Assembly (NCBI GenBank): GCA_944363935.1
Contig: CALVVT010000073.1
Span: forward strand, 4,226-68,225
Length of the DNA stretch: 64,000 nucleotides
Direction: 5' to 3'
Origin: an uncultured Bacilli bacterium
GTDB lineage: Bacteria; Bacillota_I; Bacilli_A; RF39; UBA660
Under the pieces are notes generated by a model, which saw only the letters and a program-made list of their open reading frames with translations, did no database searches and had not been told where the DNA came from. The position numbers and the translations under genes are program-made. Positions 1,211 to 38,016 of the stretch are shown piece after piece. Each line of letters begins with the position of its first letter. Within the stretch, counting starts at the first letter, position 1.

Positions 1211-3061
1211 ATGAAAAAACCAATACTTATTTTAATTGTTGCAGCATTTGGAGCTTTTTTAGGAACTTTTAACGAAACCTTTTTAAATATTGCGCTCGCA
1301 CCAATTATGAAAGATTTTAAAGTTGATGTTTCAACTGTTCAGTGGTTAACAACTGCTTACATGCTAGGAGCGGCGATTATGATTCCGATTGCTTCGTATC
1401 TATATCGCAAATTTAAAACTAAACCCCTTTTCTTATTTACGGTATCTTTACTAATTATTGGTAGTTTAGTTTGTGCTTTCGCGCCTAATTTTCCAGTAAT
1501 GCTAACTGGGCGAATTTTACAATCTTTAGGAACAGGAATGCTAACACCAATTGGCATGAATATGGTTTTAAACGTTGTTCCCAAAGAAAAAATGGGATCT
1601 TATATGGGCCTTATGGGAGCTGCCACTACTTTAGGACCATCAGTTAGTATAATTGTAGCAGGACTTTTATTAAGTCTAGCTTCTTGGCACATTTTATTCT
1701 TTGTTTTTGCCGCATTAATGGTTATTTTATTTATTATGGGGGCCGTTATTATTGGTAAAGACGAAAAAAATGAAAATCCAAAATTAGATATTTTATCTGT
1801 TACTTTAATAAGTTTAGCTTTAATCGGTATTTTATATGGTATTTCTACCCTATTTTCTGGAAATATTGTTATAGCGGTAAGTGTAATTATTATTGGCATT
1901 ATTTGTTTAATTATTTTTATCAAAAGGCAAAATAAATTAGATATCCCATTTATCAATTTTAAACCATTAACCGTTAAAAAATTTAGAACTGGTCTTGGTT
2001 TAAATTTAATTGCTATGTTTATTTTACTTGCGCTTAACGTTATTATGCCTTTATTTATCCAAAATGCCCTTAATACTTCTTCATTAAATGCTTCACTCAC
2101 TTTATTTCCAGCTATTGCTGTTTCTTGTATTCTCGCACCTATTGCTGGAAAAATATACGATAATAAAGGTGGGAAAATAATTATTCCATTAGGATATTTA
2201 CTTATTTCTATTTTTATTATCATTATGAGTCTTACAATTCATATAAATTCTTTAATTTTAATATCTTTATTATATATTCCTATTGCTGGCTTTATGAGTT
2301 TAATTATCGGACCGGCTCAAAGTTTTGCTTTAAGTGCCCTTCCTAAAAAACAAAATCCCGATGGTGTTACTTTAGTAACAGCTGGTTTTCAAATTGCTGG
2401 TTGTTTAGGAACATCATTATTTACTGGTGTTTATTCTTTAATGACAAATATAAAAATTCAAAGTAATTATTCTAATTATGCAGCTATGGAGTTTGCTTTT
2501 ATCATTACTTTAATTGTAGCTTTTGTTATTGCTTTTAGTGGCTTTCTATTAGCTTTAAAAGTTAAAAAACTCGAAAAAGAAACTATTATTACTAGTGATT
2601 TAAAACTAGAACAAATTATGAAAAAAGATATATATACAGTTAAAGAAAATGATAGTTTATTAAGTGCTTTATCTTTAATTAGTGAAAAACATATAAGTGG
2701 TGTTCCAGTTACCGATAATCAAGGTAATTTAAGTGGTTTTATCAGTGATGGCGATATTATGCGTTACCTTGAAAAAGCCCATCCATTATTTATTAATGCT
2801 TATTCACTAGCTTTATTAAGTAAAGAAAACACTTTTGACGAAAAACTTAAAAATTTAATGGATTTAAAAGTTAAAGACATTATGAAAAAGAAAGTTCTTA
2901 CTATTGATATTAATACTAATTTAGAAGATGTTTGCCGAATCCTTGAAAGTAAACACCTTAAAAAAGCTCCTGTTATTAAAAATGGTAAAATGATTGGTAT
3001 TATCAACCGGTCAAATATTACCAGTTATGCTGTTAATTCTTATTTACAGTTAGCTAAATAG
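1211..3061 (+). CDS. MFS transporter (DHA2/EmrB-like, 14-TMS type) fused to a C-terminal tandem CBS-domain pair
   Basis: 616 aa. N-terminal ~460 aa are polytopic with an MFS signature region (VQWLTTAYMLGAAIMIP). C-terminal ~150 aa contain two CBS-like modules (ISGVPVTDNQGNLSGFISDGDIM and LKKAPVIKNGKMIGIINRSNI). Confidence 0.75.
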   Translation: MKKPILILIVAAFGAFLGTFNETFLNIALAPIMKDFKVDVSTVQWLTTAYMLGAAIMIPIASYLYRKFKTKPLFLFTVSLLIIGSLVCAFAPNFPVMLTGRILQSLGTGMLTPIGMNMVLNVVPKEKMGSYMGLMGAATTLGPSVSIIVAGLLLSLASWHILFFVFAALMVILFIMGAVIIGKDEKNENPKLDILSVTLISLALIGILYGISTLFSGNIVIAVSVIIIGIICLIIFIKRQNKLDIPFINFKPLTVKKFRTGLGLNLIAMFILLALNVIMPLFIQNALNTSSLNASLTLFPAIAVSCILAPIAGKIYDNKGGKIIIPLGYLLISIFIIIMSLTIHINSLILISLLYIPIAGFMSLIIGPAQSFALSALPKKQNPDGVTLVTAGFQIAGCLGTSLFTGVYSLMTNIKIQSNYSNYAAMEFAFIITLIVAFVIAFSGFLLALKVKKLEKETIITSDLKLEQIMKKDIYTVKENDSLLSALSLISEKHISGVPVTDNQGNLSGFISDGDIMRYLEKAHPLFINAYSLALLSKENTFDEKLKNLMDLKVKDIMKKKVLTIDINTNLEDVCRILESKHLKKAPVIKNGKMIGIINRSNITSYAVNSYLQLAK

Positions 3062-3131
3062 AAAACTTAATTGTTTTCTTTTTTTATTAATATTTACTTT
3101 TTTTAGACATATTTTTTATTAGAGGTGGAAT

Positions 3132-4283
3132 ATGAGAAAATGTTTATTATTACTTTTAATTTTATTAATCCTTCCTATTAAAGCCTTCGCCGAAGAGGAT
3201 TTTAAACTTGCGCCTAATAGTAAAAGTTCTATTTTAATTGAAGCTAGTACTGGCGAAGTAATCTATGAAAATAATGCTGACGAAAAATTAAATCCCGCTA
3301 GTATGACAAAAATGATGAGTATGCTTTTAATTATAGAAGCAATTGAAAATAAAACTATTAACTGGGACGATAAAGTTACAGTAAGTGAAAATGCATCTAG
3401 TATGGGTGGTAGTCAAATTCTTTTAGAAACAGGCGAAGAAATGAGCGTTAGAGATTTATTTAAAGGTGTTGCTATATCTTCTGGAAACGATGCGGTTGTC
3501 GCTTTAGCAGAAACAGTTGCAGGCACGGAAGATGCTTTTATCAGTATGATGAACGAAAAAGCTAAAAAATTAAAACTTAAAAATACTAATTTTAAAACTC
3601 CACATGGACTTGATGCCGCTAATCATTATTCAAGTGCGAGAGATATGAGTATTATTGCTAGAGAACTAGTCAAACACAAACAAGTATTAGAATTTACTAA
3701 AGTTTATGAAGATTATTTAAGAGAAAATACTGATAAAAAAATATGGCTTGTTAATACTAATAAATTAGTTAGATTTTATGATGGCGTTGATGGTTTAAAA
3801 ACTGGTTATACCAAAGAAGCTGGTTATTGTTTAACTGCTACTGCTGAAAAAGATGGTATGCGAATTATTGCTGTAGTAATGGGTGAACCTGACAGTAAAA
3901 CTAGAAATGCCGAAGTTAGTGAAATGCTTGATTATGCTTTTGCCCAATATAAAACTGAAAATTTACTTAATAAAGATATTATCGGAACTTATGAAGTTGA
4001 TAAAGGAAAACAAAGATATGTAAATGTTATTCCGGAAACTAAAGTAAATGTTTTAAAGAAAAAAGCTGAAAAAAAAGGAAATGCTAGTTACGAAGCAAGT
4101 TTAGAACCTTTAAAAGCTCCGCTAAAAAAAGGAGAAGTTGTTGGAAAATTAAAAATTAAAGAAAATGGTAAATATATTAGAACTATTAATTTAATTACAG
4201 ATAAAAAAATAGATAAAGCTAATATTTTTGAATTATATTTACAAAATTTAAAAGATGTTATAACTGGAAAAACTAGCATGTAA
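3132..4283 (+). CDS. dacA: D-alanyl-D-alanine carboxypeptidase (low-molecular-weight PBP, S11 family)
   Basis: Signal peptide; SMTKMM (SxxK), SGN and KTG motifs; PBP5-like C-terminal domain. Confidence 0.85.
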   Translation: MRKCLLLLLILLILPIKAFAEEDFKLAPNSKSSILIEASTGEVIYENNADEKLNPASMTKMMSMLLIIEAIENKTINWDDKVTVSENASSMGGSQILLETGEEMSVRDLFKGVAISSGNDAVVALAETVAGTEDAFISMMNEKAKKLKLKNTNFKTPHGLDAANHYSSARDMSIIARELVKHKQVLEFTKVYEDYLRENTDKKIWLVNTNKLVRFYDGVDGLKTGYTKEAGYCLTATAEKDGMRIIAVVMGEPDSKTRNAEVSEMLDYAFAQYKTENLLNKDIIGTYEVDKGKQRYVNVIPETKVNVLKKKAEKKGNASYEASLEPLKAPLKKGEVVGKLKIKENGKYIRTINLITDKKIDKANIFELYLQNLKDVITGKTSM

Positions 4284-4307
4284 AAAAAGGCCTACTAAAT
4301 AGGTCTT

Positions 4308-4703
4308 TTATCTATGCATACCTTCACTAACTTGATTTTGAAGGGTTTTATCTAATACTTTAGTTACTTTGGCATAAACTAAAGTCCGGCCATTATCTTT
4401 TTCAACTTCGTCTTCCACATAACTACCTTTTGGTGTACAAGTATTTAAAATAACAATATTTGATATTTCATTTTGATCATTAATTAAAGATACATCTCTT
4501 TTAGTAATGGCAGTATCTTCAAATCTATTTATTTTAGCAAGTAATTCTTCTTCTGAACTATAATTACCTGCTTCAGCCTCATAACCACTTAACTCACCGG
4601 CGGCAAAAACAATTGAAACAAACCTTGCTACTCTTTGGACTCTTATTTTCTTTTTTCTAATTTCTTCTATTTTTTCTTTATTCCTATAAGTTATATCTAC
4701 CAA
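4308..4703 (-). CDS. Hypothetical small protein (131 aa)
   Basis: Intact ORF with no family recognised. It is preceded by the duplicated promoter-containing repeat. Confidence 0.4.
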   Translation of the reverse strand: MVDITYRNKEKIEEIRKKKIRVQRVARFVSIVFAAGELSGYEAEAGNYSSEEELLAKINRFEDTAITKRDVSLINDQNEISNIVILNTCTPKGSYVEDEVEKDNGRTLVYAKVTKVLDKTLQNQVSEGMHR

Positions 4704-4723
4704 TTATATCACCTCTTGCTTAT

Positions 4724-4783
4724 ACTATAACACATTTCCCTTATAAATAAAAGTTTTTTTAAAGAAAAAATCCATACTTTACA
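4724..4783. repeat. 60-bp direct repeat, copy A (58/60 identical to copy B at 7002-7060); contains an extended -10 promoter on the minus strand
   Basis: ACTATAACACATTTCCCTTATAAATAAAAGTTTTTTTAAAGAAAAAATCCATACTTTACA. On the minus strand it reads ...TTTATAagggaaatgTGtTATAGT. Confidence 0.85.
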
Positions 4784-4894
4784 ATGAAAAGCATAATTTT
4801 ACTATTATACAAAAAAAGGGCTTTTTTTACCCTTGTCATACATTTGTTAGTACAATTCTTAAATGAATGTACATACTTTTTTTCGTTAATTAAA

Positions 4895-28762: not shown

Positions 28763-30322
28763 TTAAAGTACAGTTAAAATTGCACATACTAATAAGATAA
28801 TTAGGAATACTAGTAAAGCAAATTTCCAAATGTATTTAAACCATTGTTTATAAGATACATCAAAGAAACTTAAACCAGCAATTAAAACTACACTAGTTGG
28901 GAATATTAACATTGCAACTGCATAAACTGATTGAATTAATAAACCAGCAACTGATAATGCTGATGCATCAAAACCAGTAACATATGTAGCCATACCAGAT
29001 AGTAAATAATATAAATCATTATAGAAGAAACTTCCAAATAATGAAGCAATAGCTGTTGTAATTACATTAAAGCCATCTGATAATTCGAATGTTTTAGCAA
29101 ACATTGTATCAACAAGTGTTCCAGTTCCACTATATGAAGCTTGATAAAGTACATATAGAATTACACTAGCAAGACCAGCATAAATAGCAGTTGGCATCAT
29201 TTTTTTCATGCCTGAAATAAATGCTTCGACATAGTTATGTAAACTTAAACGATATAACCAAGCAATAACTGCTGAAGCAATAATCATCATGATAACAAAT
29301 TCTGTATTACCCCAATAACCTATTTGAGTAATACCGCTAAATAAGTGTTCGAAAATTGCAAAATCACCTATTTTAACACCCATAATATCTTCATATAAAT
29401 CATTAAAGAAATTAATATCAAATGAATAGTACCAGTTATACATACCAACAAAAGTAACAATAAACATTAAAGTAAATATTACTGCAAGTGGGGCGATACT
29501 GATAGCTTTTTCACTGTTAACTTTTTTAACTGATTTACTAATAGCCATAGCTTTAGTTGTTTTTTTAGTAGTTTTTTTCGCAGGTGTTTTCTTGGTTGTT
29601 TTTTTAGCTACTTCTTTTTTCGCTGAAGCTTTTTTAGCCGGAGCTTTTTTAACTTCTTTTACTTCTTTAGGTTCTTCTACTTTTTTAACTGTTTCTTTTA
29701 CAGTTACTGGTTTAGTAAGATTTTTACTAAATTTAAGTACAAAAACGATAAAGATAACTGTAATCACTACTAATAAAATAATTTTCGCAACTAATTGGTT
29801 TGTCATATCAAGTGATAAGATATTTTTAGTATAACCTGAAATATTAAAACCAAAAGTTGAAGCTGCTGAGCCAATTAAAATTGAACCAACAGTTGAAGCC
29901 ATAGCCACTACTTTGGTAAAGTTTAATTTAAACAATACCATAGCTGATAATGGAACTAAAACAAATAAAGGTACAATAAGTCCTGTTACTGAAGAAAGTA
30001 AAACATAGAAAATTATTGTAATAACTAAAAATGTTTTAGCTTTTTTACTAAATTTACCAGCTAATTTGTCAGTTAATTTATCTAATGCTCCTGTTTTACT
30101 CATAACTCCGTATAAACCACCAATTACCGCAAAAACAACGATATAAGTAGCAAATACAAGAACGGTTGAAACAGGAATACTAAATAAATCAAAAATTCCA
30201 ACTGCATCGATACCATTTGTTTCTAATTCTCCACTAGTATAGGTACCTACTGGAATAATCCAACTTAAAATAACAAAAATTAAGAAAGATATTCCGATAG
30301 CTTTTAATAAATTCCTTTTCAC
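28763..30322 (-). CDS. YfcC-family (AbgT/DcuC-like) membrane transporter with a Lys/Ala-rich insertion loop
   Basis: 519 aa polytopic protein with a YfcC-like N-terminus (IPVGTYTSGELE). The central loop is KKAPAKKASAKKEVAKKTTKKTPAKKTTKKTTK. Confidence 0.5.
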   Translation of the reverse strand: MKRNLLKAIGISFLIFVILSWIIPVGTYTSGELETNGIDAVGIFDLFSIPVSTVLVFATYIVVFAVIGGLYGVMSKTGALDKLTDKLAGKFSKKAKTFLVITIIFYVLLSSVTGLIVPLFVLVPLSAMVLFKLNFTKVVAMASTVGSILIGSAASTFGFNISGYTKNILSLDMTNQLVAKIILLVVITVIFIVFVLKFSKNLTKPVTVKETVKKVEEPKEVKEVKKAPAKKASAKKEVAKKTTKKTPAKKTTKKTTKAMAISKSVKKVNSEKAISIAPLAVIFTLMFIVTFVGMYNWYYSFDINFFNDLYEDIMGVKIGDFAIFEHLFSGITQIGYWGNTEFVIMMIIASAVIAWLYRLSLHNYVEAFISGMKKMMPTAIYAGLASVILYVLYQASYSGTGTLVDTMFAKTFELSDGFNVITTAIASLFGSFFYNDLYYLLSGMATYVTGFDASALSVAGLLIQSVYAVAMLIFPTSVVLIAGLSFFDVSYKQWFKYIWKFALLVFLIILLVCAILTVL

Positions 30323-30443
30323 TTTTCTCTACCTCCCAGTGTAATTATATCAAAAAATCCTTATAATATAAAGTTTTTTTGAAATTTTTCATAAAATTTT
30401 CAAAAAAAAACACAGTCTACCCCATTAATTGCTGTGATAATAA

Positions 30444-31550
30444 TTAAAATTTATTTTTATATAAAAAATATTTAGTATTAGCGACCATAAAATAACCATT
30501 ATAACTAGCTAATACTTGTTTATAATTAGATTTTTTTTGTTTTTTCAGTCGTTTTAATTTTCTTTTCACTCGTTTTTTAGTTTGATTATTAAGTAAAATT
30601 AATAATTTTTTTTCTTTAAGTTTAAACTTATATCCTAAAAAATTTACCCCTTTATTTAAATCATATATTTGGGTTTTTTTATTTAAAGATAACCCTAATT
30701 TTTGAACCTTTCGATTAATCTCTACTAAACACTCTTTTAAAAATTCTTTATTATGATGAATTAAAATAAAGTCATCCATATATCTTATATAATATTTAAT
30801 TTGTAATTTTTCCTTAATAAAATGGTCTAGTTCATTTAAATAATAAATGGCTAAAATTTGACTCGTTTCATTACCAATTGGCAACCCTTTACCTTTTTTA
30901 TATCTAGGCAAATAATTTAGTTCTTGAAACTTACAAAAAATATCTGGGATGCTTTTCTGTCTTAATTTTTCTTTTTCTTTAGCTATTAAATTATCAATCT
31001 GATTATTAATATATTTAGCGTCAGTACTGTCGATAATATTTTTTAAAACATCAATTATTTCAAAATCAGGAATATCTTTAATTAATTTTTGTAATAAAAT
31101 TTCATGATTAATATTATAAAAATACTTACTAATATCACATTTTAAAACGTATATTTGATCATAATTTTGTTTTAATTTATTAATATATTTTTTTATATAA
31201 TAAATACCTGCTTTAGTACCTTTACCACTTCTAGTAGCAACATTTGTTTCCACTAATTTAGGAATTAAATAAGGAATTAAAACATATTTACTGATCAAAT
31301 GATTAACTATTTTATCTAAAATTCTTTCACTCATAACTATTCGGTATTTCGGTTCAGATATTAAAAATAAACTATATTGTCCGTGAGTATAAGTTCGAGA
31401 CTTTAATAAGTACAAAATTTTAGTTATATTAGAAGAAAAAGCCAGTTCAAATCTAACTAACTTTTGCTGATGACAGGTATTTAAACGAATTTTATAATAA
31501 ATTTTCAGTATTTTATCTATTGAAAGAAGATTATCATAAGTTATTTTCAT
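30444..31550 (-). CDS. Diversity-generating retroelement reverse transcriptase
   Basis: 368 aa RT domain. Motifs: EPKYRIVMSERILDKIVNHLI, the DGR-specific GLPIGNETSQILAIYYLNELD (I/LGxxxSQ in place of the group II QG) and YIRYMDDFIL (YxDD). There is no maturase or endonuclease domain. Confidence 0.9.
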   Translation of the reverse strand: MKITYDNLLSIDKILKIYYKIRLNTCHQQKLVRFELAFSSNITKILYLLKSRTYTHGQYSLFLISEPKYRIVMSERILDKIVNHLISKYVLIPYLIPKLVETNVATRSGKGTKAGIYYIKKYINKLKQNYDQIYVLKCDISKYFYNINHEILLQKLIKDIPDFEIIDVLKNIIDSTDAKYINNQIDNLIAKEKEKLRQKSIPDIFCKFQELNYLPRYKKGKGLPIGNETSQILAIYYLNELDHFIKEKLQIKYYIRYMDDFILIHHNKEFLKECLVEINRKVQKLGLSLNKKTQIYDLNKGVNFLGYKFKLKEKKLLILLNNQTKKRVKRKLKRLKKQKKSNYKQVLASYNGYFMVANTKYFLYKNKF

Positions 31551-32182
31551 TAACTTTTAATACTTTCTAAAACATATTTATCGTTAATTTTTTTATAATT
31601 ATAAGTTTTTAAAGTTCCATTATCTAATATGTTATTTAAATTATCTTTATTATATTCACCGATATCATTATTATCTAAATTATAAACATTATTATCTTTT
31701 ATATAAGCAATTTTTACATTTAATTCTAATTTATTATTATCATTAGTATAACCATATAATTTAGACACATATTTATTTTCACAAGAATACTTTTCTCTAG
31801 TAATAACGTCATTATCTAAATTATAAATATAACCATTATAAACATAATTTTGAACATTTGGCGCTTTAACATCACCAAGGATTTTTTTAGTACTTGTTTG
31901 ATAATCTTTTAAAGAAATTTTATCTTTTAATAAATTATCCTTATTCATTTGACCAAAAATTAAATCTAAAAGACTTTTATCTTCTAATTTATCGACATTT
32001 CCATCATTAATAACCGAGCATTCATTAACAGCAATCGCATCATACAAATCTTCAGCAACCTCGTGTTTTACTAAATTGCTAAAAGTTTGCGCTAGTTCTT
32101 TATTTTTTACTATCAATATTAATACTGTAATTAACACTATAATAATCAATAAAATAATAATTATTACTTTTTTATTCTTCAT
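31550..32182 (-). CDS. Membrane-anchored hypothetical protein encoded between avd and the RT
   Basis: 210 aa with an N-terminal TM and an Asn/Asp/Tyr-rich ectodomain. It is translationally coupled to avd (11-nt overlap) and to the RT (shared nucleotide). Confidence 0.5.
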   Translation of the reverse strand: MKNKKVIIIILLIIIVLITVLILIVKNKELAQTFSNLVKHEVAEDLYDAIAVNECSVINDGNVDKLEDKSLLDLIFGQMNKDNLLKDKISLKDYQTSTKKILGDVKAPNVQNYVYNGYIYNLDNDVITREKYSCENKYVSKLYGYTNDNNKLELNVKIAYIKDNNVYNLDNNDIGEYNKDNLNNILDNGTLKTYNYKKINDKYVLESIKS

Positions 32183-32525
32183 TACTAGTCTCCCTCTTTC
32201 TTAAACCATTAATCATTTTTCTTATTTCAATTAAAAATCTACCAATAACTGTAAACTGGTGATAACTTATTATTTTTTTATCCAATGAAACTTTTGTATA
32301 AAAGTCAAGCATCGAAAGTTCTACTGATAAATCTTTTAAATATTTATCTTTAATTCGTATACTAGTATTAATGTTATAAGCAAAAATGTTTTTAATTAAA
32401 GAATAACATGTTTTTTCAATATTGTTTTTTAATACAATTTCTTTTTTAGGATAATTAATAAGTAATTTATTAATATAATTAATTGTTTTATAAGAATTAT
32501 TTAAAATTTTAAAATTATAATTCAT
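32172..32525 (-). CDS. avd: Accessory variability determinant (Avd-like four-helix-bundle protein)
   Basis: About 118 aa starting at MNYNFKILNN with RBS GGAGA (the ORF track extends it to 32558). The size, basic composition and position between TR and RT match DGR Avd. Confidence 0.65.
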   Translation of the reverse strand: MNYNFKILNNSYKTINYINKLLINYPKKEIVLKNNIEKTCYSLIKNIFAYNINTSIRIKDKYLKDLSVELSMLDFYTKVSLDKKIISYHQFTVIGRFLIEIRKMINGLRKRETSNEE

Positions 32526-32767
32526 TTTTTCTCCTTCAATAAGTGTGGCTGGAGACAAAAAGTCTCCACCACTAATATAGCGATAGTTATATAAATACTT
32601 TAATAGTCATATAACGTCTATATTATCTTTTTAGGCTTTAATCCAAGGAATTAACCTTGTTTCCAATCTAAATTAGATTATTGCTTTCGCAACTACTTCC
32701 TCTGGTTATGAGCCGTAGCCAAATAACATCACGGTTCATTAGTAAATAATCACTAATTGTAGTAGGA

Positions 32768-32877
32768 AATTGGGCGGACGCCGTTGCTATTCCAAGTATT
32801 AGTGTTAGTGAGCTCGCCCGTGGCAGTCACGTACATCTCATTAGCATTGAACCAATTGTTGAAGTTCGACGGCGACA
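32768..32877 (-). repeat. DGR template repeat (TR)
   Basis: 110 bp, 95/110 identical to the VR. On the coding (minus) strand it encodes SPSNFNNWFNANEMYVTATGELTNTNTWNSNGVRPI, rich in AAC/AAT codons, and ends in GGCGTCCGCCCAATT. Confidence 0.92.
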
Positions 32878-32919
32878 AAACTGTACAAACTTATAAGGTT
32901 AATCCCTGTATGCGACGTT

Positions 32920-32949
32920 GGGCCAAAAATGAAGAGTCATTTTTGGCCC
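32920..32949 (-). promoter_or_regulatory. Perfect 13-bp stem / 4-nt loop hairpin between the target gene stop and the TR
   Basis: GGGCCAAAAATGA-agag-TCATTTTTGGCCC with no U-tract. A second 11-bp hairpin overlaps the stop codon at 32973-32999. Confidence 0.7.
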
Positions 32950-32981
32950 ATCTGCTCGCTATTTTGTTTTCGTAGTTGTTT

Positions 32982-35899
32982 CTACGAAACAACAAATGGG
33001 TCTTCAATTGTTCCGCTTCCAGTTACTGTTAGATTTTCAGAATTTAGATTGATAACTGGGCGGACGCCGCGGCTATCCCAAGTACCAGTGAAAGTGAGCT
33101 CGCCCGTGGCAGCCACGTACAGCTCATAAGCATAGAACCAATTGCTGAAGAACGACGGCGACATGGTCCAGTATGTAGTTCCCGTATATAAATAATATAA
33201 AGAATTTACTGATCCATTTATTCCACCAGCCATATTTACTTCGTCAGCAGTGATTAAACCAACTGAATAATTTAATTTCTTATTTCCTCTATTTACACTA
33301 AAACTATCGTTTTCTTCACACATTAAGGTTGGTCCAAGTTTTCCTTGAGAGGCCCAATTCAAAAATCTTTCATATCCATATATTGTTGGATTTATTCCAT
33401 ACCCTAAATTATTATAAGTTCCACTATTTTTAGAAGATTTATTTCGGTTATTACAGAATACTGCATCTTTACTTATTTTATCATTAACACTTGTTAAATT
33501 ACTTTGATACCAACTATCTAGATAATCTTTCATAGTACTATCATTTACATTACTATGTGCTTCTTCCAAACTTGTCGTTCCATAAGCTTTTGCTTTTACT
33601 GTCATTGAAGTACTACTATTATATTTTGTTGTATAAAATAGTCTTTGACATGAAGCTGAAGCCGAAGTACTAAAACAGGTATAATATCCTACTTCATTAT
33701 TTGAAAGGGTTCCTGTATGTAAATCTCCTGATAATTTATAACCTCTACTGTTTTTATCAAAGGTATAACTTGTTCCAAAATAATATTTCGCACTGCTTGA
33801 AAGACTTGTATAAACAAACGTCATATCACCACTATCTGTTTCCACAAAATTATTAGCGTTTCCATACATATATCCTACATAAGTATTGTCATTGGTATAT
33901 GAATTAAAAGCACTTGTTCCTACCTGTCTATTACTACTTGCTTCACCATTGGTATAAGGTGTGGTTCCATCATATATCATTCTTATACTTCCATCACCAT
34001 TTACTCTGATTATTCTCCAGTACATATTATTAAATTTTACATAGTTTCCCCCAACACTTCCGCGGTAATAATATGTCGTTCCATCATTATCACTTCCAGC
34101 ATACATTCCAACTCCAGTTGTATCATAACTAGCGACTGACTGGGTATAATCATATTTTGTCATATTATAAGTTATCTGACCAGTTGAACTATTTGTACTT
34201 GTCGTTACATTAGTTATTTTGTATAAAGTCGTACAAGAAACATTTGTAGTTAAACAAGTATAATAATCTCCACTACTATAATCTATGCTTGATGGATCTT
34301 TTAAACTATAGCCTGTTAAAGTATATATTCCTGTTGTTTTATTAAAAGTATAGCCTGTTCCAATATTATCATAATATATATGACTATGAACCGTTGTATT
34401 ACTTGCATGAACTTCATTATATGAAGCACTTGGACTTGTAACCATAAAGTTTGGATTACCTTTACCTTCTATCTCTTGTTTAGCTAGTTCTATATTACTT
34501 TCTTTAGCTTCACTGGCTATTATACAATCTCCAAAATTATCTATATCATTATGTTCACAAAATGCTGCATGTCTTATTGTTGTTGTTTTGGCCATCGTTT
34601 CTGATATATTTCCAGCTTTATCTTTTACATATACTGTTACTAAATAATCGCCTTCTTCAAGAGTAGTAAATGTATAGTTTGGATTACTAGTTTCAACATA
34701 ACTTTTACCCCCATCTTTACTATAATAGTATGTAGATACTCCGCTTTCTTTATCATTTGCATCTACTTCAATAGTCATTGTGTCATCGTCTGGAGTTACT
34801 ATTACATTTGTTACTTCTGGAATATTACTATCAACATTATAATTATCTGTACATTTAATTTCTTCATTTCCTACTACATCTACGGCTTTTACACAGACTT
34901 TTTGACTATCTTTATTACTAGTTATTTGAACCATCCCTTTATTATCTGTAAGTTCTAGTTCTTTATCTGGAGTACAATCACTATTTCCTATACAGTATAA
35001 AGCTTTAGCTACTTTATCATTATCACTAACTTCAACATTTATATCAAGTCCCTTATACCAATTATTTTCACCTTTTATATTATCTCCCATTACTAATAAT
35101 ACTTTTGGTTTCGTTTTATCTAAAGTTTTAAATTTTGTACTAGAAAATACTACTTCTCCTTCTTCGTTTTCAGCTTTAACATAAAGCATATATTCTGTAT
35201 TTGGTTTAAGATTATGAATAGTATAACTATTATTATTTGTCTCATACCATTTATCATTATCTAATGAAAAATAGTATTTAATAGCATTTTCGGCGGTTAT
35301 TTTACTTGTTACACTTGTTTCATTTGGATTTACTTCTAAATCACTTATTTTAAATCCTTCTACTTCTATACTATCTGCATCTGAAAAATTAGTACTATTT
35401 CCTTTTTGAACATACTCTAATACTGTAGAAAAACTAAACTTTGTTTGTTCAGGTTGACTAGTTATATCTTCATTATATTTTAAAATAACATTAAACTTTT
35501 TTTCTGTTTCCGATAACAATTCTTCTTTAGCGGTTATCCCTTCTACCGAATATATAAGAACGTTTTGTTCTGGCGCATTTATTTTAATACTATCTAAAAC
35601 AGCATCTAAAGTTCCTTTATTTTCAACCGTTATTTCATAAGTTATACTATCTCCTGGCGCATAAAAGTTAGCTGTCATATTAGCCGTTAAATCATTCCAA
35701 TTTGGCTCTGTAGCATTTTCAGCATTGCCTTCGGTCTTTATAGTTTCAACATTTGTTATTCTAATATCCCAAATACTTGTTATATTACTGGTACCGTTAA
35801 TATTTAGTTTACTACTAAAAGCGGCATACCCTATTCCCATTAACATTAATAAACAGCATAAACCTAATATAACTACGTTGTTCTTTTTTCGTCTATGCA
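32982..35899 (-). CDS. DGR target: large secreted surface protein of the GIGYAAF family with repeated beta-rich modules and a C-terminal VR-bearing (C-type-lectin-like) domain
   Basis: About 972 aa from MHRRKKNNVVILGL (RBS AAGGAGG; the ORF track starts 34 nt upstream at 35933). N-terminus LMGIGYAAFSSKLNINGTSNITSIWDIRITN. The VR is 24-60 residues from the C-terminus. Confidence 0.85.
33055..33164 (-). repeat. DGR variable repeat (VR) at the 3' end of the target gene
   Basis: Encodes SPSFFSNWFYAYELYVAATGELTFTGTWDSRGVRPV. The 15 substitutions relative to the TR are all at TR coding-strand adenines (for example AAC to TTC, AGC or CGC, and AAT to TAT, GGT or GAT). It ends in the GC-rich GGCGTCCGCCCAGTT. 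Confidence 0.92.
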
Positions 35900-36002
35900 T
35901 AACATACCTCCTTATTTTATTTAAGTATAGCACATTTGTTGGGGGTAATGCAAGTATCTTATTTAGAAAAATATTATTTTATAAAATTATGGTGGTGGTA
36001 CT

Positions 36003-36212
36003 ATGATAAAAATAAATATCGAAGAACTTCTTAAAGAAAATGGAAAAAGTAAATATTGGCTTCGCCAAAAGATGAACATAACTTCCAGAAACCTTAATAA
36101 AATTATTAGAGGTGAAACTAATTCTATTTCTTTCAAATATATTGAAGAATTTTGTTACTACTTAAACTGTACTCCAGGAGATTTAATAACTATTGAAAAA
36201 GACAGGCCCTAG
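36003..36212 (+). CDS. XRE/Cro-type HTH regulator (69 aa), divergent from the DGR target gene
   Basis: KYWLRQKMNITSRNLNKIIRGET helix-turn-helix. Confidence 0.7.
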   Translation: MIKINIEELLKENGKSKYWLRQKMNITSRNLNKIIRGETNSISFKYIEEFCYYLNCTPGDLITIEKDRP

Positions 36213-36219
36213 CCTGTTT

Positions 36220-38016
36220 TTACATTACTAAATTATATATTTGGGTACTTAAAATACAAATAATTATTCCAGTAATTGTTGGAATCACAATAGATAAAAA
36301 TGTCCATTTTAGACTACCAGTTTCTTTTTTTATCGTTAAAACTGTCGTTAAACAAGGAAAATGAATAAGTGAAAACAAAATAACATTAATAGCGGTTAAA
36401 GTCGTCCAACCATTTTCTATAAATAACGTTTTTAAAACATTTAAATCAGGAGTTTCGATAAGCTGTCCTAGAGAAAGATAACTCATTATGATAATTGGAA
36501 TAACTATTTCATTAGCTGGAAAAGCTAGAAGAAAAGCTAAAAGAATAACTCCATCTAATCCCATTACTTTAGCAAATGGATTAAGAAAATTAGAACATAT
36601 TTCCAGTAATGTATTTCCATTTATCATAACATTAGCCATTAACCAAATAATAATACCAGCGGGAATGCTTGCTAATACTGCTCTTTTTAAAACAAAAATT
36701 GTTCTATCAAATATTGACCTAATAATTATTTTTAGAATTTCTGGTCTTCTATACGAAGGAAGTTCTAAAGTAAAAGAAGAAGGTATTCCTTTTAATAATG
36801 TTTTCGATAATATTTTAGTAACAACGAAAGTAATAAAAATTCCTAAAACAATAAATAAAGTTAAAATTAAAGCTTTTAATAAACTAGTTCCTGTAGTTAC
36901 TAAAAACATTGTAATCATAGAAATAATTAATGGAAATCTACCATTACAAGGAACAAAAACATTAGTTAAAATAGCCATTAACCTTTCTCTTGGAGAATCA
37001 ATTATTCTTGCTCCAGTTACCCCTACTGCATTACAGCCAAAACCCATAGCCATAGTTAAAGCTTGCTTTCCACATGATGCACATTTTTTAAAACATTTAT
37101 CAAGACAAAAGGCAATTCTCGGTAAATAACCTAAATCTTCAAGTAAAGTAAATAATGGGAAAAATATTGCCATAGGTGGTAACATTACAGATACGACCCA
37201 AGCTAAAACTCTAAATAGGCCATAAACAAGCATATTTATAATAGTAACTGGAATATGTAAAAACTCTAAAAAATTTAATAATGGTTTTTCAAAACTAAAA
37301 AGAAAATTATACAAAATATCAGAAAAATAATTAGTAAATACAATAGTTAACCAAAAAATAAATAAAAGCATTAATAACATTATAGGAATACTTAAATATT
37401 TACTAGTAACTATTTTATCAATTATCCTATCTTTTTTAAAACAATCTTTATTATGATATGTTACTACTTCTAAAGCAATTTCTCTTGCTTTATTAGATAT
37501 TTCAAAAGTATTTAACTTACTTTTAGAATTATTTTTATTAATTTTTGAAATACTTTCTAATAAATTATCTAATCCTTTTTTCTTTCTAGCAATTACTGGA
37601 ACAATTGGTATTTTAAGGATTTTTTCTAGTTTTTCATAATTTATTTCTATTTTTTTCTTTTTAGCTTCGTCAATTAAGTTTATACATAAAATTACTTTAT
37701 TAGTAACATTAAGAACTTGAAGGGCTAAAATTAAATTACGTTCTAATGCACTAGCATCACAAACAACAATTAAAGCATCATAATTATTACTATGAACAAA
37801 ATCTCTTGTAACTTCTTCTTCTTTTGAATGAGCTTTTAAAGAATAAGTTCCTGGTAAATCTTCAATTAAATAAGTTTTTCCTTGATATTTTTTTACACCA
37901 CTAGCTTTAACAACTGTTTTTCCTGGCCAATTACCTGTGTGCTGGTGCATACCAGTTAAAGCATTAAAAATAGTACTTTTTCCAACATTAGGATTACCAA
38001 TTAATCCAATTTTCAT
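36220..38016 (-). CDS. feoB: Ferrous iron transporter FeoB
   Basis: N-terminal G-domain (GNPNVGKSTIFNALTG) plus a polytopic permease domain; 598 aa. Confidence 0.95.
   Translation of the reverse strand: MKIGLIGNPNVGKSTIFNALTGMHQHTGNWPGKTVVKASGVKKYQGKTYLIEDLPGTYSLKAHSKEEEVTRDFVHSNNYDALIVVCDASALERNLILALQVLNVTNKVILCINLIDEAKKKKIEINYEKLEKILKIPIVPVIARKKKGLDNLLESISKINKNNSKSKLNTFEISNKAREIALEVVTYHNKDCFKKDRIIDKIVTSKYLSIPIMLLMLLFIFWLTIVFTNYFSDILYNFLFSFEKPLLNFLEFLHIPVTIINMLVYGLFRVLAWVVSVMLPPMAIFFPLFTLLEDLGYLPRIAFCLDKCFKKCASCGKQALTMAMGFGCNAVGVTGARIIDSPRERLMAILTNVFVPCNGRFPLIISMITMFLVTTGTSLLKALILTLFIVLGIFITFVVTKILSKTLLKGIPSSFTLELPSYRRPEILKIIIRSIFDRTIFVLKRAVLASIPAGIIIWLMANVMINGNTLLEICSNFLNPFAKVMGLDGVILLAFLLAFPANEIVIPIIIMSYLSLGQLIETPDLNVLKTLFIENGWTTLTAINVILFSLIHFPCLTTVLTIKKETGSLKWTFLSIVIPTITGIIICILSTQIYNLVM

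Follow-up and report, generated by a model that had tools for sequence, protein, structure and literature searches.

What occupies the gap between the template repeat (TR) of a diversity-generating retroelement (DGR) and its avd gene, and does it help to prime cDNA synthesis from the TR? The question is raised by a locus in a stretch of 64,000 nucleotides from an uncultured Bacilli bacterium (contig CALVVT010000073.1, positions 4,226 to 68,225; called 'the window' below, with coordinates given as window positions). All parts of the DGR lie on the minus strand, and a spacer of 242 nucleotides (32767..32526) separates the TR from avd. A preliminary description, made from the sequence of the window, had given this spacer as about 240 nucleotides without a credible open reading frame (ORF) and had put it forward as a candidate cDNA-priming RNA. 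The first point is confirmed, since the longest start-to-stop ORF in the spacer encodes 23 amino acids (ATG start, 32739..32668), and the second is supported by a conserved sequence family linked to the TR, by covarying helices and by two long-range helices. We consider it likely that the DGR template RNA has as its non-coding part this spacer together with a 12-nucleotide segment upstream of the TR, and that this part is the functional counterpart of the spacer (Sp) RNA of the Bordetella phage BPP-1.

A conserved structured RNA directly 3' of the template repeat

A search with the protein sequence of the DGR reverse transcriptase (RT) found 410 relatives in genome contigs, and 80 related loci were retrieved with it. 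They are designated by L numbers below and belong to uncultured Bacilli of the gut with labels such as 'Mycoplasma sp. CAG:956' and Candidatus Faecimonas; with the window they make up the 81 sources that we searched. Iterated nhmmer recovered 68 copies of the element in 41 sources (40 loci and the window), and a covariance model (CM), R1, recovered 69 copies in 45 of the 81 sources, with a sole match in the window at 32573..32774(-) scoring 160.9 bits. The conserved core measures about 195 nucleotides (32769..32574) and lies directly 3' of the TR. Upstream DNA was checked for 59 copies, and in every one of them the element is preceded by a TR-like sequence with a conserved GC-rich TR end. The spacer DNA is 70-87% identical in loci where the RT proteins share 45-70% identity.

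Placement of the element varies among the relatives. It occurs before avd, after the RT gene (3-4 kb downstream in L009, L012 and L033, and inverted downstream in L051, L062 and L063), or in tandem TR-spacer arrays of eight units in L015, five in L016 and four in L004, which argues that it travels with the TR and not with avd. Many further copies, mostly from the human gut and with arrays of up to seven units among them, came out of a motif scan of metagenome assemblies and were confirmed by the CM; about half of the listed motif-scan matches are chance matches. A pattern scan of viral contigs gave three matches, none of which was confirmed by the CM.

The spacer is non-coding. No reading frame is conserved in 38 homologous elements, whose sense-strand ORFs have a median length of 15 and a maximum of 33 amino acids and whose overall lengths (168-219 nucleotides) show no bias towards multiples of three. 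No sign was found of the small conserved protein-coding gene that would have undone the preliminary proposal, and the indels of the family are not multiples of three either. The whole spacer folds with -63.7 kcal/mol, against -43.5 +/- 4.1 kcal/mol for shuffled sequences (z = -4.95). A cmscan of 30000..36500 against Rfam, with E-values up to 10, returned four weak chance matches, none of them within 32526..32912 and none to a retron or any other family at this locus.

A hand-drawn structure of 47 base pairs was scored on a structure-blind MAFFT alignment (38 copies) and on a CM alignment (68 distinct copies), with pairing partners slid by 1-3 columns as the control. On the MAFFT alignment 89.9% of cells are paired, compared to 28-49% with slid partners; 33 of the 47 pairs have double changes, and the covariation score is 0.41 compared to at most 0.10. 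The corresponding figures on the CM alignment are 94.6% of cells paired, double changes in 36 of 47 pairs, and a score of 0.50 compared to at most 0.08. A comparison of structure and covariation with the spacers of related DGRs, as proposed in the preliminary description, thus comes out in favour of a conserved RNA. RNAalifold independently recovers helices P0, P3/P4/P4b, P5, P9 and P10, and in all the element contains about ten helices with abundant compensatory changes.

Read from its 5' end, the element opens with a domain (32765..32693) closed by P1 (32764..32761 with 32697..32694, UACU:AGUA). Within this domain lie the hairpin P2 (32757..32752 with 32743..32738) and the interrupted stem P3-P4-P4b (32734..32699), which is capped by a C(UACG)G tetraloop (32717..32714); compensatory changes are found in P1, in P2 and in each of P3, P4 and P4b. 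By analogy with BPP-1, P3-P4-P4b is a candidate Avd-binding stem-loop. Two hairpins follow: P5 (32692..32681, UUGC-GAAA-GCAA) is variable in the family and covaries at all three of its pairs, and P6 (32679..32665, AAUCU...AGAUU) is invariant and hence uninformative on covariation. Both sit inside the primer strand, and both are absent from relatives of the L043 type and from compact relatives. Next comes GGAAAC (32664..32659), invariant in 64 of 69 CM-aligned copies, in which GGAAA is the 3' (primer) strand of the long-range helix P0 and C a linker.

The 3' part of the element begins, after a strand discussed below, with the short hairpin P8 (32646..32632), which shows compensatory changes at all four modelled pairs on the CM alignment; its pairing is 62% on the MAFFT alignment, owing to a one-column misalignment, and 84% on the CM alignment. 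Two invariant adenosines (32631 and 32630) and a single-stranded A-rich stretch (to 32625) lead to a long 3' stem with an internal loop (32624..32574). This stem is composed of P9 (32624..32618 with 32580..32574), with double changes in five of seven pairs, and P10 (32615..32608 with 32593..32586), with double changes in all eight, and on the same analogy it may be the RT-binding stem-loop.

The two long-range helices

The strand that follows the linker nucleotide after GGAAA, AAGGUUAAUUCC (32658..32647), is perfectly complementary to GGGAUUAACCUU (32906..32895), located about 18 nucleotides 5' of the TR. The two form 12 contiguous base pairs, one of them G·U, and the duplex is present, with the TR in between, in the minimum free energy (MFE) structure of the natural 373-nucleotide RNA. 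Across 61 copies, the best partner of the strand after GGAAAC lies just upstream of the copy's own TR. These strands differ greatly in sequence from lineage to lineage, and also among the units of a single array, each array unit having its own matched pair of strands, and the duplexes covary (AAGGUUAAUUCC/GGGAUUAACCUU, AGAUAGCUCC/GGGGCUAUCU, AGAUUUACCA/UGGUAAAUCU). Over the 61 copies the mean energy is -13.7 kcal/mol for cognate strands, -7.5 +/- 2.35 kcal/mol for non-cognate strands and -6.9 kcal/mol for shuffles, and the cognate duplex beats every non-cognate one in 36 copies. The spacer strand ends in CC, paired to GG. By analogy with BPP-1, this bracket around the TR would serve to stop polymerisation, and we refer to it as the stop duplex.

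The second long-range helix, P0, joins the TR/spacer junction to the GGAAA motif. UUCC (32768..32765) and GGAA (32664..32661) are complementary, and neither varies among the 38 aligned copies. The window's own helix is one pair longer, UUUCC:GGAAA, in which UUUCC (32769..32765) is the template side of a predicted template:primer helix and pairs with 32664..32660. P0 abuts P1. The whole of the template strand 32769..32761 would therefore lie in a single uninterrupted helix, its partners being two segments of the spacer with P5 and P6 between them.

Because invariance gives no covariation, we located divergent relatives, weakly detected or missed by R1, with a TR profile. In the compact relatives the helix is continuous and varies in a compensatory manner: UUUCUCUA:UAGAGAAA, UUUCAG:CUGAAA, UUUCCUUA:UAAGGAAA, UUUCUUCAA:UUGAAGAAA, UCUCUAA:UUAGAGA, UUUCUUUU:AAAAGAAA and UUCU:AGAA. 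Each of these helices stops 1-2 nucleotides before the stop strand. When counted from anchors chosen blind to pairing, position +1/-1 is paired in 23 of 25 distinct units, as U-A (11), C-G (10) or A-U (2). This count replaced the column-wise MAFFT count of P0 for the compact variants, where the junction strand is offset by one column. A search for 5-bp helices over the last 25 nucleotides of the TR and the junction found no other spacer segment as a consistent partner; the best segment was fully paired in 40% of copies, and this outcome led to the P0 of 4-5 bp.

Other pairings were tried and set aside. In the window, AGAUUGG can pair with the TR end (CCAGAUU or CCAAUUU), but this pairing fails in L004, L015 and relatives of the L043 type, with no covariation; P6 and P0 are preferred. 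A local GGAA:UUCC helix within the spacer (32664..32661 with 32650..32647) has a 3' partner that is not conserved, for instance in L006.

The junction is also where the likeness between the TR and the variable repeat (VR) ends. The TR (32877..32768, 110 nucleotides) starts 177 nucleotides downstream of the VR (33163..33054, 110 nucleotides), which forms the 3' end of the target gene, and the 15 differences in their 110-nucleotide alignment all fall at TR adenines. The last shared stretch is CCCA (32771), followed by an A-to-G difference at 32770 and then by UU (32769..32768), which again matches the VR; the TR 3' end proposed earlier at 32768 is right to within three nucleotides, identity really ending at 32771. 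Across the family, TRs read CCCAG|AUUCC and VRs CCCAG|UUAUC at this point, so TR/VR homology stops exactly at the template:primer helix and the predicted start site, which fits a start of cDNA synthesis at the last TR nucleotides.

Proposed mechanism and its alternatives

How might these parts work together? Transcription of the RNA would begin at 32906 or upstream of it and end at about 32545, and 32906..32895 would pair with 32658..32647, looping out the whole TR. Beside this stop duplex, UUUCC-UACU (32769..32761) would pair with GGAAA (32664..32660) and AGUA (32697..32694) to form the template:primer helix, which would present adenosine 32660 or 32661, the putative priming nucleotide by analogy with BPP-1, to the RT active site. 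Synthesis of cDNA, probably from a 2'-OH, would start at the last TR nucleotide or nucleotides, at about 32770, and run 5' through the TR. P2, P3-P4-P4b with its UACG loop and P9/P10 would hold Avd and RT, and the bracket duplex, P8 and the invariant AA, perhaps through A-minor contacts, would stop polymerisation at the TR 5' edge. The hairpin at 32572..32545 would close or stabilise the 3' end of the RNA, or weakly terminate it, ahead of avd.

Several points weigh against this interpretation. The RNA ends, the priming nucleotide and the chemistry are predictions from sequence analysis. P0 is invariant in elements of the window's type, and its covariation comes from divergent relatives, some of them aligned by eye. 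Its permutation tests give moderate differences (-5.0 against -3.2 kcal/mol; 6.8 against 4.7 bp) for a short, A/U-rich helix, the energy permutation being weak and some of its automated anchors erroneous. The MFE structure of the single sequence pairs the junction with GAGGAAGU instead of GGAAA, a pairing that we rejected because it is not conserved, position 75 covarying with position 42 (P3) while C10 is invariant. No convincing sigma-70 promoter was recognised in the window between the hairpin that follows the target gene and the upstream strand. With respect to BPP-1, the template:primer helix of the window lies at the TR edge, whereas that of the phage lies 17 nucleotides inside the TR, and it is split by the inserted P5 and P6, whereas the primer and stop strands of BPP-1 are two nucleotides apart. 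Moreover, R1 run with filters off against BPP-1 1500..4800 gave a best score of 2.6 bits (E = 4.6) at an unrelated site, that is, no detectable homology.

In many array units of L015 and L016 and in L004, L071 and L079, the GGG of the upstream strand is preceded, at a distance of 3-7 nucleotides, by a UAUAAU or UAUA(G) box, which suggests a separate -10 element for each TR-spacer module and a transcription start at the stop-duplex strand; at that position the window has CAUACA only.

At the other end of the RNA stands the hairpin that the preliminary description had singled out as a 7-bp structure abutting avd and had included in the priming element. It is real and lies just before the ribosome-binding site (RBS) of avd, ending 8 nucleotides upstream of it, but it is larger than described: the sequence GUGG-UGGAGAC-UUUUU-GUCUCCA-G-CCAC (32572..32545, 28 nucleotides) adds a bulged G and a 4-bp lower stem to the 7-bp upper stem. 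The hairpin is well structured (-18.4 kcal/mol; z = -5.7 against shuffles); however, it falls outside the family-wide core, about 90-110 nucleotides 3' of the predicted priming elements, and resembles hairpins found at 3' ends or terminator positions. At the homologous position L001, L002, L003 and L007 have stems based on GUGG...CCAC with unrelated tops. A hairpin followed by a U-run is found there in L004, L005, L009, L012, L029, L033, L037, L043-48, L056, L059 and L073, and the array-internal units of L015 and L016 carry a U-run with no hairpin. The terminator-like hairpins of these other clades come after the element, not before it.

The window hairpin resembles a Rho-independent terminator as a stable, G+C-containing hairpin that would end a non-coding RNA, and differs from one in that no U tract follows (its tail is ACACUUAUUG); a terminator scan does not call it. 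Since it sits where other clades carry a terminator-like hairpin, it likely marks the RNA 3' end. Its most likely assignment within the DGR RNA is thus to the 3' end or a terminator position, and the most economical reading is that it stabilises the 3' end of the template RNA or causes weak termination with read-through into avd.

Could the hairpin instead work as an additional arm of the spacer RNA that is specific to this clade, as a protein-binding stem? The five loci closest to the window (L001, L002, L003, L007 and L008) share a conserved GUGG/CCAC stem base at the same position under differing tops, and only these five carry an extra ORF of 210 amino acids; the lack of the U tract of a canonical terminator points the same way. 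However, neither the family-wide model nor the internal units of the L015 and L016 arrays contain such an arm, the position is taken in other clades by a hairpin with a U-run, and two of six folds are no better than shuffles. We hold an extra arm to be somewhat unlikely.

A different alternative retains the same RNA and changes the chemistry, the primer being the 3'-OH of an RNA nicked in the primer strand and not a 2'-OH branch. Naorem et al. 2017 (PMC5703328) proposed such priming, from the 3'-OH of nicked template RNA, for the Bordetella phage element. The structure found here fits both chemistries, which sequence analysis cannot separate. The branched RNA-cDNA molecules reported by Handa et al. 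2018 (PMC6182149), most plausibly 2'-5' linked, argue against nicking, as does a later structure in which A56 of the intact spacer is located at the primer site (10.1101/2023.10.23.563531), and we judge priming from a nick to be unlikely.

The region could also be a cis-regulatory leader of avd and the RT gene (a riboswitch, an attenuator or a translational control element), with the hairpin controlling avd and no role in reverse transcription. Its strong structure, its position directly upstream of avd in the window and the 8-nucleotide distance from hairpin to RBS would all suit a leader. However, some copies have no avd behind them, namely those within tandem arrays and those located 3-4 kb past the RT gene (L009, L012, L033). 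The element also pairs with sequence upstream of the TR and with the TR junction, it has no Rfam match at E-values up to 10, and many relatives have a terminator or a further ORF between it and avd. Taken together, these observations make a leader very unlikely. A hidden small conserved protein gene, for which the 23-residue ATG ORF at 32739..32668 could be invoked, or unconstrained AT-rich DNA with chance structure, as such DNA forms many weak hairpins, has a negligible probability given the ORF lengths in 38 homologues (median 15, maximum 33 amino acids), indels not in multiples of three, pairwise compensatory substitutions, DNA that is 70-87% identical where RT proteins are 45-70% identical, and the fold z-score of -4.95.

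The cassette, its relatives and known systems

The template RNA proposed here belongs to a locus with the parts of a DGR cassette: a TR/VR pair with adenine-located differences, and RT and Avd genes nearby, in the order target-TR-Sp-avd-X-RT. The target gene (35933..32982) encodes a surface-type protein of 983 amino acids with PKD and FN3 matches. Its C-terminal 239 amino acids (33700..32982), which carry the VR, have no Pfam or NCBIfam match at E-values up to 0.01; they end in ...GVRP(V/I)IN, a motif common to the VRs of related loci. Directly after the target-gene stop stands a hairpin of 14 bp (32950..32919, UGGGCCAAAAAUGA-CUCU-UCAUUUUUGGCCCA, -20.8 kcal/mol). In 24 related loci its inner stem AAAUGA/UCAUUU and its four-nucleotide loop CUCU/CUCC are conserved in sequence and its outer stem covaries. 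It accompanies the VR gene and not the TR, lying in L029 about 90 nucleotides after the VR and 2.3 kb from the TR-Sp unit. This hairpin could be the counterpart of the VR-flanking hairpin/cruciform of BPP-1 that is needed for target recognition, or an unusual terminator.

The avd gene (32525..32172) starts at ATG 32525 behind the RBS GAAGGAG (32537..32531). A mechanical ORF list starts it at TTG 32558, within the hairpin; the credible start codon is ATG 32525, with GGAG 6 nucleotides before it, and numbering from this codon puts the first residue of the Avd family match at 6-11. The protein passes the Pfam bAvd cut-off (1.3e-12; 48.6 bits for a cut-off of 40) and matches NCBIfam DivGenRetAVD at 6.4e-14 with 52.1 bits, under that model's curated cut-off of 80. 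The 210-amino-acid ORF (32182..31550), between avd and the RT gene and overlapping both, encodes a membrane-anchored protein with an N-terminal hydrophobic segment and has no Pfam or NCBIfam match; among the related loci compared, homologues occur only in the five closest. The RT (31550..30444) matches RVT_1 at 1.1e-18, and the motifs IGNETSQ and YMDD can be read from its translation. The preliminary description had deduced from the gene order that the RT acts in trans of the spacer. This is correct, but not new: many DGR gene orders are documented, including TR and RT on opposite strands (Wu et al. 2018), so that action in trans is expected.

The relatives display further variation around the element. 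In L015 (2131..4649), L016 (3132..4649) and L004 (490..1794), and at the metagenome loci L160, L131 and L161, a single avd-RT pair is preceded by a tandem array of 4-8 TR-spacer units that differ from one another. In L001, L002, L006, L007, L014, L018, L024, L032, L040, L043-L048, L056 and L059 the gap between Sp and avd measures about 390-530 nucleotides and opens with an RBS and an ATG, which suggests that such gaps hold an extra small gene of roughly 120 amino acids that the window lacks. In L051 (~4370..4602), L057, L062 and L063 an adenine-poor 'TR' of about 50 nucleotides, CUUCCUCGCCGUCUGUUUCUUAUUCCUUGRCGGGGUUCGGCCAGAUU, precedes a normal spacer, and the partner of the stop strand is only about 76 nucleotides upstream; beyond the RT gene, L051, L062 and L063 carry another TR-spacer unit, which is A-rich and inverted.

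We tentatively propose, as a possibility, that the DGR template in this group of gut Bacilli is a portable module (upstream strand, TR and spacer, often with a -10-like box before and a terminator after) that has been multiplied into arrays of up to eight different TRs per single Avd-RT pair, and that, owing to the split helix, a multi-helix junction and not a simple duplex presents the priming adenosine. If the modules are indeed portable, one retroelement could diversify many targets from separate template RNAs.

Cis-priming by a DGR template RNA has been worked out in one system only, the Bordetella phage, and its generality rests on single-sequence fold predictions. To this the present family adds dozens of diverged copies with compensatory support for the primer helix, the stop duplex and the flanking stem-loops, from a distant, AT-rich, gut-associated lineage that has a different gene order. 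It also yields precise predictions for the priming adenosine (32660/32661), for the point where cDNA starts (about 32770) and for the two ends of the RNA (near 32906 and near 32545). The CM serves to annotate TR boundaries and strand in metagenomic DGRs, and a compact natural RNA scaffold could help in reprogramming DGRs for directed evolution.

Among known RNAs, the msr/msd of retrons resembles the proposed template RNA in being a structured non-coding RNA beside an RT gene that self-primes from an internal 2'-OH. It differs in priming from a conserved guanosine flanked by inverted repeats and in having no TR/VR pair, no Avd and no adenine mutagenesis.

The closest parallel is the Sp RNA of BPP-1, whose published numbering we checked against the BPP-1 sequence. 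In that RNA an Avd-binding stem-loop is followed by a primer strand (Sp47-56) that pairs with TR117-129 and ends in the priming nucleotide A56; after two linker nucleotides, Sp59-70, ending in CC, pairs upstream of the TR as the 'cPRT Stop'. The 3' part comprises a 2-bp UUCG hairpin, A80/A81, which make A-minor contacts, a single-stranded 'Thumb Ring' and a long RT-binding stem-loop (10.1101/2023.10.23.563531). Like this RNA, the window element is a non-coding RNA directly 3' of the TR that would work with Avd and a DGR RT, and the order of parts is the same: stem-loop(s), primer strand, a linker of 1-2 nucleotides, stop strand ending in CC, short hairpin, AA, single strand, long stem-loop. 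Both have a tetraloop-capped stem near the 5' end, a helix at the TR 3' edge with an internal spacer strand ending in adenosine, and, 1-2 nucleotides after the primer, a strand of about 12 nucleotides ending in CC that pairs upstream of the TR. GGAAAC is placed like ...GUCA56-G57-C58 before the stop strand, and P8 with the invariant AA parallels stem-loop 71-78 with A80/A81.

Beyond the differences in helix position and continuity weighed above, the window core is longer (about 195 nucleotides, against 140-144 in BPP-1) and has an extra 5' hairpin, P2, and a further 3' hairpin; its upstream strand is intergenic, after the target gene, whereas that of BPP-1 lies inside avd; and the gene order target-TR-Sp-avd-X-RT is its own. 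Kinship with the BPP-1 spacer is thus functional and architectural, common descent of the two RNAs not being demonstrable.

Putative Sp elements with stop duplexes and stem-loops have been predicted in 207 of 278 Avd-containing DGRs, Bacillota included, using MxFold2 on single sequences, with 40 nucleotides upstream and 100 nucleotides downstream of the TR and no covariation (10.1101/2023.10.23.563531). In contrast, the family described here has compensatory changes over more than 60 copies and an identified template:primer helix. In the literature that we searched, no DGR spacer family is described on the basis of covariation, and no further structure of a DGR ribonucleoprotein came to light. 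The window locus is a well-supported new example of a known mechanism and not a new mechanism; what it adds to the systems known so far is a specific spacer family supported by covariation, the identity of its primer helix, and a usable CM.

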